Source of the DNA: a virus
Taxonomy: Duplodnaviria > Heunggongvirae > Uroviricota > Caudoviricetes
Length of the DNA stretch: 64,000 nucleotides
Strand: one strand, 5' to 3'
Virus record (IMG/VR): IMGVR_UViG_2778261223_000007
Span: 12,132 to 76,131 of that record
Made by a program: the position numbers and the translations under genes
In this document: positions 2,329 to 50,577 of the stretch, in pieces
Layout: each line of letters opens with the position of its first letter
How positions within the stretch are numbered: position 1 is the stretch's first letter
The notes under the pieces: model-generated
What the model saw: only the letters and a program-made list of their open reading frames with translations
Told to the model about the DNA's origin: nothing
Database searches by the model: none

Positions 2329-3755
2329 CGATTACAGAATTACTGGACAAATTTAACGCCAAGTTAAATGAAAACACATGGTGGTCACGATTTGTAAATA
2401 GTCAGTTTGTGCAGATGCACGCTATATTCGGATCACAGCTTATTTATATTGCCCGTACATTTGCAAGCCGCGGCCTCACTGAGGGACTTATTTCAACGGC
2501 TACGCGCCGCTCAAGTATTTTAGCGGTTGCTGAAGACCGTAGCTACGTAGGGCGATTTGTTAGTGCTTCATACGGAACAACGTCTATAACCAATAAAACT
2601 GATCGGGATATTACGTTACCAGCCGGGGCTGAATTGCTTGCCAATGACCAAACACCTTTGGCAATTATTAACAGTGTTGTAATTCCTGCTGGAGGAACTG
2701 TTTCTGGCGTAGAAACTAAACAGCATGAAGCTGTTAGCGTTACATTTGATATTGAGAAGGAAACTTTATTTCTGACATTGTTGCTTTCCAGAGAATTAAC
2801 AAAAGAAGTCTCTAGCCTGGATGTTTATGTTATTACAGATGGCGTAGAAGAAAAATGGACATATAACCCATTATTTAGAATGTCCAGAGACAAGAGTAAG
2901 CACTATTCATTGGCATATAAACCTACAGAACAACTTGGAGTCAAGTTTGGTGATGGTTCTATGGGTATGATGCCTCCAGCAGGCTGTCAGGTTCGAATCG
3001 ATGTTATGGCTAGCCTTGGCGACTATACTTTGGCTGAAGGACAAAAGTTAGAACCGGCTGGAAATATCGCTCAATATGTGGAGTCACTAGAGTTTAAAAC
3101 TGATTCGATCATTACCGGTGGTAGTGGTATGGAAACTACAGAAGAAACTCGAAATCGTGCTCAGTATTATGTTGCATACGATGAACAAGTGGTATGGGGC
3201 GGTGATTATCGCCAATTCATTCAGAATGTTGTTCATGGAACTTCATGGTTGAACGTTTGGGGCGAAGCGTTGCAAGAGAAAATAACTGGGTTTGACGTTC
3301 GAAACATCAACAAGATTTTCTTTTGCGGACATAAGCCAGGTGTAAGCCAGGCTCAGCTAAAATCAGAAATACTGAAAGCTCTAGAGAATGTTCCAAATGA
3401 GTTGAACAAGCGGTTTGAGTATGTAGATACAAATGAACAACCATTTACTATAATATTTACAGGTATTGCACGTAAAAATGTTCTGATAGACGACGCTCAA
3501 AATGCTATTAAAGCAGCGTTGGAAGAAAATTTTGGTCGTGATTCGTCATCATTCAGTTTATTACTACAGAGTGATGATGATTCTCAGCAATGTTATGCAC
3601 AGGTAAAAGTTAAAGATATTTGGCGAGTAATAGAGTCGCTGGATATGTTTCTCTCTTATGACATAACAATACAAAATATGAAAGATGCAGTTTACTTTAA
3701 TGACTTCATTTATCTTGACGTGAAATCTTCAACGTTCAGCATTTCTTACCCGTAA
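2325..3755 (+). CDS. baseplate J-like protein
   Basis: 476 aa, GTG start overlapping upstream stop (translational coupling); W-J-I-fibre gene order typical of myovirus baseplate modules. Confidence 0.4.
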   Translation: MTITELLDKFNAKLNENTWWSRFVNSQFVQMHAIFGSQLIYIARTFASRGLTEGLISTATRRSSILAVAEDRSYVGRFVSASYGTTSITNKTDRDITLPAGAELLANDQTPLAIINSVVIPAGGTVSGVETKQHEAVSVTFDIEKETLFLTLLLSRELTKEVSSLDVYVITDGVEEKWTYNPLFRMSRDKSKHYSLAYKPTEQLGVKFGDGSMGMMPPAGCQVRIDVMASLGDYTLAEGQKLEPAGNIAQYVESLEFKTDSIITGGSGMETTEETRNRAQYYVAYDEQVVWGGDYRQFIQNVVHGTSWLNVWGEALQEKITGFDVRNINKIFFCGHKPGVSQAQLKSEILKALENVPNELNKRFEYVDTNEQPFTIIFTGIARKNVLIDDAQNAIKAALEENFGRDSSSFSLLLQSDDDSQQCYAQVKVKDIWRVIESLDMFLSYDITIQNMKDAVYFNDFIYLDVKSSTFSISYP

Positions 3756-20710: not shown

Positions 20711-21673
20711 GTGAGTATTTTAAATTCAGTTTCAGTAACTTTCAACACTTCTGAGTATAAAAACAACACTGAATACCACAAAAAAATCAAAGGTCATCAG
20801 TTGAGTTTTTTTGCTCGTCATAGCGGTCTTCTTTCCCCTTCACATAGCGCCATTATTGCCGAGTTCGCCAACCTGGCAGGGTCTACCGATGAATACATGA
20901 TCCGTCGCTCATATGCTGATATGTCCGAGATTACAGGACGCAGTATTTCTACTGTGCGCCGGGCATTTGCTGAAGCGACGAAGTGCGGAATGCTTGTTAA
21001 GCAACATCAGGTAGCGAATAACAATGCCCAGGTGTGTAACGTATATCGGTTTACGACACAATTTCTCCACTTCATTCATGTAGCAATGGAGATAGGGGGT
21101 AAGCAGGGCATCAAATTTGCCAACGCCACAAAACTGGTTAAGCAGTTGATTTCAAAGGTTCGTTATTTTTTTGAAACTGGGAACCCCCTGTTCAAATTGA
21201 ACAAGTCCCCCCATGTTCAAAATGAACAGCCAATAGAAAATAAGAGTCACTCTATAGCCAAAAGAAGAGAAAGATCATACGCGGTTCAGCCAAAGGCTTC
21301 ACCAGCAGATAGTTCTCAAACGGATAACGGTGTACTGGATAAAAAACCAGTAATCAGGGAAGAACATACCAACCACTGCCTGGCGGCGGCAAAAGCGAGA
21401 GCTGCAAAGCGTCGTTCAGACGAGGGGCACGCAAAACGGCAGGCTCTGTATCGTACCGCTGAAAAGCTGGCAAAAAAATTTGCATGGATACGTAGTGCCG
21501 CTACCGCAGTGAATAAGCCTAAACAATCCAATGCCCTGGATTTCTCAATGGATTATTCTGGCTCCCAGGGGTGTGCAACCATTGGTGAAGCCTTTGACCT
21601 GATGAAACAGCGTGGCTATCGGTCTGAATTTGACCGGGAGGATTGGTCAATCCCTGCGGGATTTAGGGGATGA
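20711..21673 (+). CDS. putative replication initiator with winged-HTH (RepL-like)
   Basis: 320 aa, GTG start; HTH-like segment YADMSEITGRSISTVRRAFAEATKCGMLV; operator-like motif upstream at 20523..20539. Confidence 0.35.
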   Translation: MSILNSVSVTFNTSEYKNNTEYHKKIKGHQLSFFARHSGLLSPSHSAIIAEFANLAGSTDEYMIRRSYADMSEITGRSISTVRRAFAEATKCGMLVKQHQVANNNAQVCNVYRFTTQFLHFIHVAMEIGGKQGIKFANATKLVKQLISKVRYFFETGNPLFKLNKSPHVQNEQPIENKSHSIAKRRERSYAVQPKASPADSSQTDNGVLDKKPVIREEHTNHCLAAAKARAAKRRSDEGHAKRQALYRTAEKLAKKFAWIRSAATAVNKPKQSNALDFSMDYSGSQGCATIGEAFDLMKQRGYRSEFDREDWSIPAGFRG

Positions 21674-46854: not shown

Positions 46855-47049
46855 AAATACTGGAAGCACTTTGTCTGCTACCAAGCATTCTCTGTTTAAG
46901 CACAACCATTTCCTGACGGCATAACACAGCAATAGCGGTCCTGGCACCAATTTGCTTACCAACCAGGTATTGCTTTACCTCGCGGCGACTCACGCCATCA
47001 AGAAGCATCTTTAACGCTTCACGGGACAACTTGTTGTATTTACGTGCCA
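46853..47049 (-). CDS. small HTH-like protein downstream of doc (post-doc position)
   Basis: 65 aa from the ATG 6 nt after the doc stop; MARKYNKLSREALKMLLDGVSRREVKQYLVG. Confidence 0.35.
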
Positions 47050-47054
47050 TTAAT

Positions 47055-47435
47055 CTACTCCGCAGAACCATACAATCTACGTAACGTGTCGGCGACAGAA
47101 GATACAGATATCTCGCCAGTCGCAGCGCCTACAGTAAGGTCTGCCAGTTCAGGTGAATCAAATACCTGAACCCCGTTACGGCGTAGAAATAGCAGCGCAC
47201 TGTTTAGCGCGGTACGCTTATTGGCATCATTGAATATATGCCCTCTCGCTGTAGCCACCAGGTAGGTGGCGGAGACTTCGAAAAGGTCGCTGATCTCTTC
47301 GTAGGCAACTCTGGCCTGAACTCTCCCGATAATGGCCTCTGCCCTACCCGGATCTGACATTCCCGGCAGGCCACCGTAGCGGCTTATATTCGCATCATGA
47401 AGCGCAATAAGTTCTTCCGGTGATATATGCCTCAT
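47055..47435 (-). CDS. doc: Doc toxin (Fic/Doc family)
   Basis: 126 aa; sequence matches P1 Doc as I recall it ([25 protein letters not shown]...). Confidence 0.9.
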
Positions 47436-47656
47436 TATCGGTTAACCAGTTCCTTGTTGGTGGAGTCCAGGGTGTCAAACAGGGATGCAAATTCGGCATC
47501 CAGCGCCGCTTTTTTGTAGGCTTCAAAAGTAGCCTTGCTAACAATTACTGCTGGCTCACGGCCTCTGCGGGTGATTTCAACCTCTTCCCCGGCTTCAACA
47601 TTGTTGAGCACTTCAGAAAGGTTGCCGCGCGCGGTACGGAAGTTAATGGATTGCAT
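47435..47656 (-). CDS. phd: Phd antitoxin
   Basis: 73 aa from [17 protein letters not shown]...; stop overlaps doc start; matches P1 Phd as I recall it. Confidence 0.9.
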
Positions 47657-47764
47657 AAACACCTCGTGTGCTCGTTATGTGTACGCAATTATAGGTTTTA
47701 ATGATGCTGAATACCACTTCTTGGTGCCTTAAATCCTCGAGATGCAGTCTTGCAATTGCTGGGA

Positions 47765-48187
47765 TTAAGCAGAATAAGTGGTTGGAATTCTGAGCAGTAA
47801 TCCAATCTTGGCTATGTGCTCATATGGCAGCTCTCCGGTTTTACCGTCATGTATCGAGGCTATCAGATTCAATTCTTGCGCCGCTTTACGAATTTCAGTT
47901 TCTGATGGAACAAGGCGAAAACCGATGTGTAACATTTTGATATAGAAAGGTAATAGTTCGTACTTCACCCGTAACTGTGCTGCCGCATCTTTCAAATCAT
48001 GGATGATTTCTTGTTTTAAGTCAGAGCGGGGATTCGATAGCTTTGCTTGGTTAGACAATAACAGATGCGATATTTCCCCCAACTGTTCCTTGAATGAAAT
48101 GTAAGACTCAACCCCCTTGATGATGAGTCGACCTAGGACAAAAACGCTTACTCCAGTGACAACAGTGACAAAAGCAGACGAACTCAT
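47765..48187 (-). CDS. membrane-anchored hypothetical protein
   Basis: 140 aa, N-terminal hydrophobic helix. Confidence 0.4.
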   Translation of the reverse strand: MSSSAFVTVVTGVSVFVLGRLIIKGVESYISFKEQLGEISHLLLSNQAKLSNPRSDLKQEIIHDLKDAAAQLRVKYELLPFYIKMLHIGFRLVPSETEIRKAAQELNLIASIHDGKTGELPYEHIAKIGLLLRIPTTYSA

Positions 48188-48321
48188 TCGCGTACCTAAA
48201 AAGAGAATTATAACCTCATCTTATCTTCAAGTGAGTAACCGCGTCTAATGGGAGGAATCATTTAAATGGCCAGGGCGATATAGATCCAGTCATGCCTCTC
48301 TATGGTTTCTCTGAAAACAAA

Positions 48322-48711
48322 TCATATAGCAGGACTATCATCAAATTCACCGCCCCTGGCGTCATTGATAATGTGGGTGATCACACCAAAAACAGCATTA
48401 CTACCCGTGTAACCATCGTCATCTACTGGTAACGCCTCTTTCTTCCCGGTGCTTAAATCCTCCAGGTGCTGGCGCGGATACTTCCGGTATCTTTTTACGC
48501 GATATTCCCCCTCCATAGCGCATATAAGCAGTGAGCCATCAACCGGAGTAAGTGAGGAATCAACCACCAGCAAAGCACCCTGCAATATTCCCTCACGGTG
48601 ATGGCTATCAGCTGCCCGCATGAAGTAGGTTGCTGATGGATGTCTAATTAGTTGCTGATCAAGAGAAATTCGGCTTTCAACATAATCCGCCGCAGGAGAA
48701 GGGAAGCCCAT
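48322..48711 (-). CDS. humD: UmuD'-like S24 peptidase-family protein (HumD-like)
   Basis: 129 aa; GFPSPAADYVE ... GILQGALLVVD ... KRYRK pattern of UmuD/LexA C-terminal domain; LexA box 19 bp upstream. Confidence 0.75.
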   Translation of the reverse strand: MGFPSPAADYVESRISLDQQLIRHPSATYFMRAADSHHREGILQGALLVVDSSLTPVDGSLLICAMEGEYRVKRYRKYPRQHLEDLSTGKKEALPVDDDGYTGSNAVFGVITHIINDARGGEFDDSPAI

Positions 48712-48729
48712 AGCGTTTTACCTCAATGA

Positions 48730-48749
48730 TACTGTTTATTCATACAGTA
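48730..48749. promoter_or_regulatory. LexA (SOS) box TACTGTTTATTCATACAGTA
   Basis: Perfect CTGT-N8-ACAG palindrome between divergent genes humD (minus) and 48902..49252 (plus). Confidence 0.7.
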
Positions 48750-48901
48750 TACATTGAAAAGGCATAGTTTGTGAAAGCGGGGTTTGTAAGCAACGCCGCT
48801 GGCGGCAAGGTCTACGTTCACCTTGTCTCGCTCTTCCTGGCTTTTAGCTGCTATATTTCGATCTGACACAAGAAACCTCCAGGAGTTAGTGGATCAGGCA
48901 C

Positions 48902-49252
48902 ATGCACAATAACGTTCTCAATGTTAGCCGTTCAATTCAGACAATCAGAGACTGCACCAGTGTGGTGGCATCAATCCCATTGCGAAACAGCATAGACGAA
49001 CTGCAAATTCGTGTATTGAATCTGAATCAGGCTAATAAGCAATTGCGCTTTATTTTGACGCTGAAAAGTGAAACAGAGGGGATAAAGCACAGCGTAAAAG
49101 TGTTTTCTGAGGCCATTCTGCTTAATGGGAAGCTCCGGCATCTAGTAAGGCCAGAACGTCAATATCCTGACGTCCTGGCGCGTGAAAAAGACCTTCTTTC
49201 TGAAGTTCAGGATAGGGTGATCGATTTCGTCAAATGCTATCCCCTGCATTGA
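48902..49252 (+). CDS. hypothetical protein, divergent from humD (likely SOS-regulated)
   Basis: 116 aa, ATG start; shares the LexA box region. Confidence 0.4.
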   Translation: MHNNVLNVSRSIQTIRDCTSVVASIPLRNSIDELQIRVLNLNQANKQLRFILTLKSETEGIKHSVKVFSEAILLNGKLRHLVRPERQYPDVLAREKDLLSEVQDRVIDFVKCYPLH

Positions 49253-49358
49253 GGGCAGGTGTTCCCTTCCGCAAAGTAGGGAAAACTGCTATCAAGTTCA
49301 TCACACCATCTGCGATGGTCGTAGCACCAAAACGCCTCCCACGGTGCACGGAAATACT

Positions 49359-49511
49359 TCATCCACCAGGACACTCGATCAGGTATATCTGCTGGTGGCA
49401 GTTCTTCTGGCAATAATTTGCCTGATAATCCCGCGACAGCATTTTTTTGAGGCTCGCGTTCTCTTTTTCAAGCTCATCTACGCGCACCTGTAATTCAGCT
49501 TTCGTTGGCAT
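49359..49511 (-). CDS. small coiled-coil protein (candidate)
   Basis: 50 aa from ATG with GAGG RBS; overlaps 3' end of upstream gene by 17 nt. Confidence 0.25.
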   Translation of the reverse strand: MPTKAELQVRVDELEKENASLKKMLSRDYQANYCQKNCHQQIYLIECPGG

Positions 49512-50577
49512 GGTCCGCCTCATGCTTTTCAGCCACCAGCGGCAATAAAGCCCTGGCCATCTTATGAACCAATAGTGCATCAATAATGCCAAGCGTATGC
49601 CCCGGCTTAATGTTTAATGCCGCCTCAAGGTGACACCTTTCCAAGCCACTTTTCTCGGCTTGTTTATGATGATCTGGTGTAATAACGTCGCCCAAAACAC
49701 GGCTAATTCTTTCTCGTAATTGCTGGGTGCCCGCACTCTTGATCGCTGTATCGTGGAGACGGTTAACCAGTTCGCGATAAACATGCGGCTTAATTCGGAT
49801 ACGTTCACCGGTGACGCCCTTTCCTGGCGCTGGCACCGAACTATCCGGAATATCCGGATAGTTGCCAGCCAGTCTACGCAAAACGGCCTTAACAGCCTCA
49901 ATACGGTCATCATCGCAATTTTCCAGCGTATCTATGCGATCGAGCATGATGATGGCGTTATCAATATCAGGATTGCCGGTCCACTCATTACCGCGATTGG
50001 ATTCGGCAGCCTGGTTGCCGCGTACTGGTTGATTATCGGCTTTACCCAGTCTGTCGTTGCTGCATGAATGCCCTTCCAGCCAGGCCAATGCTTGTCGCAT
50101 GAAATACGCAATATGTTTGCCGTGGTAATCGTCTTCATCGATGTGAAAAGCGATACTGCGGATGTATTCAATTGCGTTTTCAATGGCCTCCGGCGTTATC
50201 GGCGCTGACATATTTTGATTTTGGAGTGCCAAGACGCGGCTGGCATCCTCAACACCTTTAACGGCATCTGCGCAGTAGTTATAGCGATTGCATTCCACTA
50301 ACTTCTGCTTGAGATTTTCAATTGCTTGCGCGACATCAGCCTGCAATTCCCGAACTGGCGGAGTAGCATATAACGGCACCCACTTTGGTGCTTTATCCCC
50401 GACCGAACGCTGATACCAGTCACCCGGTTTGTATTCATAAAACTCACCAACAGGCTCTGCTTCCAGCGATGCCAGCGCAATTTCATAAGCACGGCGCTCA
50501 ATATTGTCTCGAACGTCCAGACTGCCTATGCGCTCTTTGATTTCTTTAATCAGTTCTTTGTCGGTTAAAACGGTCAT
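49495..50577 (-). CDS. hypothetical protein
   Basis: 360 aa, ATG with GAGG RBS. Confidence 0.5.
   Translation of the reverse strand: MTVLTDKELIKEIKERIGSLDVRDNIERRAYEIALASLEAEPVGEFYEYKPGDWYQRSVGDKAPKWVPLYATPPVRELQADVAQAIENLKQKLVECNRYNYCADAVKGVEDASRVLALQNQNMSAPITPEAIENAIEYIRSIAFHIDEDDYHGKHIAYFMRQALAWLEGHSCSNDRLGKADNQPVRGNQAAESNRGNEWTGNPDIDNAIIMLDRIDTLENCDDDRIEAVKAVLRRLAGNYPDIPDSSVPAPGKGVTGERIRIKPHVYRELVNRLHDTAIKSAGTQQLRERISRVLGDVITPDHHKQAEKSGLERCHLEAALNIKPGHTLGIIDALLVHKMARALLPLVAEKHEADHANES

Follow-up and report, generated by a model that had tools for sequence, protein, structure and literature searches.

The 20-bp palindrome at positions 48730-48749 of the window, the whole 64-kb stretch of viral DNA analysed here, is very probably the LexA operator of humD, and would block the humD promoter (PhumD) until DNA damage occurs. 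Control of humD by the host LexA/SOS system had been proposed in the first-pass annotation, and as a reading of the sequence this proposal is strongly supported by the quality of the site, by its overlap with the predicted promoter, by its conservation across unrelated phage backgrounds and by the annotation of phages P1 and P7. LexA control of humD is already known, on the basis of GenBank annotations and secondary citations, and our finding repeats the P1/P7 annotation. A LexA-site feature can nonetheless be added with confidence to the GenBank record of phage D6, which carries no annotated LexA site, although the significance of this goes little beyond annotation.

Identity of the window and gene layout

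Over region 47000-49600 the window matches Escherichia phage D6 (MF356679, reverse complement) at 100% identity, and the stretch 21150-21550 shows 99.0% identity with D6 and 99.8% with an E. coli plasmid. From the D6 matches in these two places we take the window to be phage D6 or a near-identical, D6-like plasmid prophage of the P1 family. A scan of 47000-49600 against Rfam gave nothing above threshold, the chance sub-threshold match to mir-67 scoring 25 bits where the gathering score is 53. The features of the locus are as follows.

47055-47693, minus strand: phd-doc addiction operon with its own promoter, comprising a -10 element TATAAT (47693-47688), then the operator, phd (47435-47656) and doc (47055-47435); identified by Pfam PF02604 and PF02661 and by alignment to the annotated P1 Pphd
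47765-48187, minus strand: orf109 (D6_109), hypothetical, 140 aa, phrog_7512, without a Pfam match
48322-48711, minus strand: humD (D6_108), in the D6 record 'umuD-like, similar to P1 humD'
48723-48869, minus strand: hot remnant (D6_107), 48 codons, in the D6 record 'theta subunit-like, similar to P1 hot'
48730-48749, no strand assigned: probable LexA (SOS) operator, a consensus match homologous to the sites that P1 and P7 carry as LexA protein_bind features, and kept in 79/79 related loci
48746-48775, minus strand: predicted sigma-70 promoter PhumD, with -35 TTCACA (48775-48770), an 18-nt spacer and -10 TATACT (48751-48746)
48902-49252, plus strand: orf106 (D6_106), hypothetical, phrog_2594, divergent from humD

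A LexA box upstream of humD

The CTGT-N8-ACAG box that had been described at 48730-48749 is there as TACTGTTTATTCATACAGTA, which reads TACTGTATGAATAAACAGTA in the orientation of humD, and it is the sole occurrence of this pattern in the window. The loose pattern alone proves little, because 0.76 occurrences per window are expected by chance. The full 20-mer, however, agrees with TACTG(TA)5CAGTA at 17 of its 20 positions, with both 6-nt arms perfect, and this level of three mismatches or fewer was reached in none of 100 shuffles of the window. With a heterology-index (HI) matrix based on a set of 19 E. coli operators, which gives approximate values, the humD box scores ∼3.3, compared with 5.3 for the recA operator and 7.8 for the best site across 50 shuffled windows. 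The site is thus by far the best LexA-box match in the window, and has the 20-bp palindrome and CTGT-N8-ACAG core of a gammaproteobacterial LexA operator. Its distance from the humD start, previously given as 19 bp, needs a small correction: 18 nt lie between the box and the humD ATG, 19 being the spacing in P1-type relatives.

Orthologous sites are annotated in two records, as a protein_bind feature at 87545-87564 of P1 (AF234172; 'LexA binding site in the regulatory region of lxr and humD') and at 94404-94423 of P7 (AF503408; 'regulation of humD expression'). Later papers list lxr among 'LexA-regulated functions' and term humD a LexA-regulated SOS gene. The P1/P7 site resembles ours in having identical arms and in belonging to a homologous gene and promoter region, the step to the humD ATG being 19 nt there and 18 nt here. 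The P1 box, TACTGTATAAATGAACAGTA, differs from ours at two spacer positions, and the -35 element is nearer to consensus here (TTCACA) than in P1 (TTGCAC). Upstream of the box the two elements diverge, with lxr and then hot in P1, and a deleted hot followed by orf106 here.

A similar arrangement is found in the host. The E. coli umuDC operator, which we take to be TACTGTATATAAAAACAGTA, and further SOS boxes of high affinity, that of recA among them, have the same 20-bp consensus, a low HI and a position over the -10 element and start site, as does the humD box with respect to its predicted promoter. The umuDC operator also controls a gene of the UmuD family; in our case, however, this gene encodes a pre-truncated UmuD' analogue and has no adjacent umuC.

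Overlap of the box with the predicted humD promoter

Within 47400-49400 a single site resembles a promoter, the minus-strand TTCACA-18-TATACT, with 10/12 consensus matches. Four bases of its predicted -10 hexamer also belong to the box. The start site predicted for humD, deduced from the consensus promoter rather than mapped, falls at ∼48739, in the middle of the box. This predicted overlap of the -10 element and start site is the classic layout for occlusion of RNA polymerase by LexA. A Shine-Dalgarno sequence for humD, GAGG, is present at 48724-48721.

Among IMG/VR loci encoding HumD, the -10 hexamer is TATACT in 76 of 79 and TATGCT in the other three, and in three sequence backgrounds a -35-like hexamer is found at an unchanged register. 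Our promoter call conflicts with the P1 record, in which the predicted PhumD lies ∼480 bp further upstream, within lxr.

One difference within this promoter concerns laboratory P1. HumD of P1 is said to be poorly expressed, an observation attributed to McLenigan in 1999. In laboratory P1 (AF234172; M95666), the base predicted to lie at -11 of PhumD (equivalent to 48750 of the window) is G rather than A, giving TGTACT versus TATACT. The hexamer is TATACT in P7, wild P1 (MH422554), SJ46, RCS47, 813R1 and D6, and the TATGCT of the three IMG/VR loci also has A at -11. The A-to-G change at -11 could account for the poor expression reported for P1 HumD.

Conservation of the box in related and distant phages

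We collected as close relatives 79 IMG/VR loci that encode HumD with a locatable start codon, and the box lies 18-19 nt upstream of the humD ATG in every one of them. Twelve variants of the box occur in this set; CTGT and ACAG are invariant in all of them, and 8 of the 12 other positions change. Between lineages, homology stops 10-57 bp upstream of the box; since it breaks off just beyond the box, the box, the promoter and humD appear to travel as one module across contexts. Conservation among these close relatives would on its own be weak evidence, because their protein identity is 92-98%, and it is the distant phages that carry the weight.

In N15, phiKO2, HK639, BTP1 and Hafnia phage yong1, a CTGT-N8-ACAG box lies 14-44 nt upstream of humD-like genes with 43-67% identity. 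A box also stands just upstream of the first gene of a two-gene unit in HK140, and in ST846-OXA48phi9.2 one lies ahead of what is probably the true start of a full-length umuD. In all 7 of these distant phages with a box at a humD-like gene the flanking DNA is unrelated, so that the site is kept at both orthologous and analogous genes despite diverged flanks, as is characteristic of a LexA operator. The closest parallels are gp23 of phiKO2, upstream of which a lexA site is annotated in the phiKO2 record, and gene 26 of N15, both of them stand-alone umuD'-like phage genes with a LexA box just upstream, as here. Judging from these comparisons, phage-borne pre-truncated umuD' genes almost always come with a LexA box of their own, forming a compact SOS-inducible cassette.

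Escherichia phage APC_JM3.2 has a degenerate box, TACTGTATGTGCATGCAGCG (664-683 of the stretch compared), in which ACAG is changed to GCAG, the sole such case among the humD-like loci examined. At 99 aa, its annotated humD-like coding sequence is also shorter than those of the other phages, and this phage may be losing box and gene jointly.

The HumD protein and its proposed induction

HumD is a 129-aa stand-alone UmuD'-like protein that matches Pfam PF00717 (S24 fold) and phrog_811. Its residues 2-118 align with residues 1-114 of UmuD' and 25-136 of UmuD, with HumD residue 2 pairing with UmuD' residue 1, which is UmuD residue 25. The positions of the catalytic dyad are kept, the Ser of 'DSH' corresponding to that of 'DSM' in UmuD and the Lys of 'VKR' to that of 'VKK'. 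HumD thus combines the S24 fold and the Ser/Lys positions with an N-terminus at the Cys24/Gly25 cleavage point of UmuD, as expected for a UmuD'/HumD protein, and it is made in an 'already cleaved' form because it begins at the equivalent of Gly25. No umuC lies beside humD. P1 HumD, which is 95% identical to the protein encoded here, reportedly replaces UmuD' in combination with host UmuC, a result ascribed to McLenigan et al. in 1999.

With this in mind, one may outline how the locus would respond to DNA damage. In the undamaged lysogen, a dimer of host LexA would bind 48730-48749, covering four bases of the -10 element and the predicted start site of PhumD, and RNA polymerase would be blocked. 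DNA damage would activate RecA and lead to self-cleavage of LexA, and humD would then be transcribed. The pre-'cleaved' HumD would presumably pair with host UmuC and give a Pol V-like translesion synthesis activity, bypassing the RecA-dependent processing of UmuD.

A truncated hot gene running through the box

The first-pass annotation overlooked that the 152 nt separating the box from orf106 hold a truncated hot gene, a homologue of the Pol III theta subunit. The remnant matches only positions 3-31 of the 70 in PF06440 and does not encode a full-length theta, its remaining codons being derived from promoter/operator DNA. In comparison with RCS47 and 813R1, ∼218 bp are deleted between GCYTACAAA microhomologies, and the deletion took the 3' two-thirds of hot together with the hot-humD spacer. 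The GGAGG-GTG start is kept, and the open reading frame now passes through PhumD and the LexA box to a TGA stop (48725-48723) that overlaps the humD Shine-Dalgarno sequence. An existing family of 48-aa proteins, phrog_27764, matches the remnant end to end.

The same hot deletion is found in IMG/VR contig 2526164631_000025, and a second IMG/VR contig has the same 152-nt spacing from box to orf106 as D6. Relatives with a full-length hot carry a GGGGG-N14-CCCCC hairpin, GGGGGAGAAATGTGATTAGCCCCC, in the interval that separates the stop codon of hot from the humD promoter (RCS47, ∼3160-3240 of the stretch compared, minus strand). This hairpin may be a terminator or insulator that was lost in the D6-type deletion.

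Possible read-through into orf109 and phd-doc

Transcripts from derepressed PhumD might run on through orf109 into phd-doc, in which case DNA damage would raise the expression of the addiction module. Terminator scans of the window predicted no intrinsic terminator between humD and phd, and the same is true of P1, whereas in N15 and phiKO2 a terminator is annotated right after the humD-like gene. Folding the two spacers, humD-orf109 and orf109-phd, as RNA likewise gave no terminator and no unusual structure. In addition, P1-like phage-plasmids are reported to share humD-phd-doc as a conserved cluster (PMC9603915).

Several features nevertheless make this extension of SOS control unlikely in our view. 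Terminator prediction covers the intrinsic type, and Rho-dependent termination lies beyond its reach. The distance from humD to phd in D6 comprises 134 nt, the 140-aa reading frame and a further 108 nt, orf109 being an insertion that P1, P7 and RCS47 lack in this interval. Moreover, phd still has a -10 element of its own, TATAAT, as well as the Phd/Doc operator; the P1 record annotates Pphd, and the phd-doc operon is autoregulated. Some SOS-driven read-through into phd-doc is therefore best regarded as possible, alongside the preferred reading of the box as the operator of humD.

The Phd/Doc operator (47660-47690, minus strand) has two T-to-C changes compared with P1 and RCS47, one per repeat: the repeats are GCGTACAC and GAGCACAC here versus GTGTACAC and GAGTACAC in P1/RCS47.

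The D6-type deletion invites a broader speculation, which we find more doubtful still than read-through by itself. Unterminated, SOS-derepressed transcription from PhumD would read through orf109 into phd-doc; in addition, upstream (late or constitutive) transcription of hot could translationally feed humD independently of LexA, because the reading frame of the hot remnant ends on the humD ribosome-binding site. If this were true, DNA damage would become coupled to the dosage of the 140-aa orf109 protein as well as to that of the addiction module.

The divergent orf106 gene

The box had also been regarded as shared with the divergent gene at 48902-49252, orf106, and here the architecture argues against the first-pass annotation, with the hot remnant lying between and a distance from box to gene that ranges from 152 to 721 nt among relatives. 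If the operator were bidirectional, a single LexA dimer would shut off not only PhumD but also a rightward promoter driving orf106. On the plus strand, an extended -10-like TGaTACTGT (48727-48735) and a weak TTCATA-18-CATAGT (48739-48768) do overlap the box, but these rightward candidates reach only 8/12 consensus matches. A separate candidate for orf106, an extended -10 TGcTATATT at 48849-48857, lies 44 nt before the ATG and ∼100 bp from the box, and would be LexA-independent.

Comparison of loci points the same way. Orf106 was found at 35 loci, 34 with a box in the available DNA and one without a box in its stretch. The distance from box to orf106 is 368-369 nt in 27 loci, 720-721 nt in four, 344 nt in one and 152 nt only in the two D6-type loci, whereas that from box to humD is fixed. 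In 32 of the 35 the box is thus 344-721 nt away with hot in between, and in four of these with further DNA as well; the usual layout places a complete, oppositely oriented hot between box and orf106. In 813R1 the box and humD are present, but no orf106 is annotated alongside.

Truly shared boxes do exist in phages. The box of phiKO2 occupies a short intergenic region between the divergent SOS-type genes gp22 (dinI-like) and gp23 (umuD'-like), whereas here the hot remnant and a variable distance intervene. A short intergenic box with two divergent promoters, in a layout kept among relatives as in the uvrA-ssb or phiKO2 type, is therefore not what we find at this locus. The annotators of P1 made a similar guess for lxr, but orf106 and P1 Lxr are unrelated (E = 3.8), which also rules out that orf106 is a diverged lxr. 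Taken together, joint repression of orf106 by the humD operator seems improbable, even more so than the coupling of hot, humD and phd-doc considered above. Naming a neighbouring gene 'LexA-regulated', as was done for P1 lxr, reflects proximity only.

Chance matches and a second LexA-like palindrome

That the humD box itself is a chance palindrome or a decayed relic with no regulatory role is barely credible: a loose CTGT-N8-ACAG match is indeed expected in a window of this size, but the full 20-mer was never approached in shuffles, all 12 variants keep its arms unchanged, and unrelated phages carry the site as well.

A further palindrome, TACTGGATAAAAAACCAGTA at 21333-21352, also resembles a LexA box, with an approximate HI of 5.6 that beats all of the 50 shuffles. 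It sits within a repL-like lytic replication gene (20711-21673, plus strand). We do not claim it as a functional LexA site, since the palindrome is not conserved in relatives with 71-72% identity, and it is probably a chance or lineage-specific match; in a 95%-identical relative, CTG-N10-CAG is retained.
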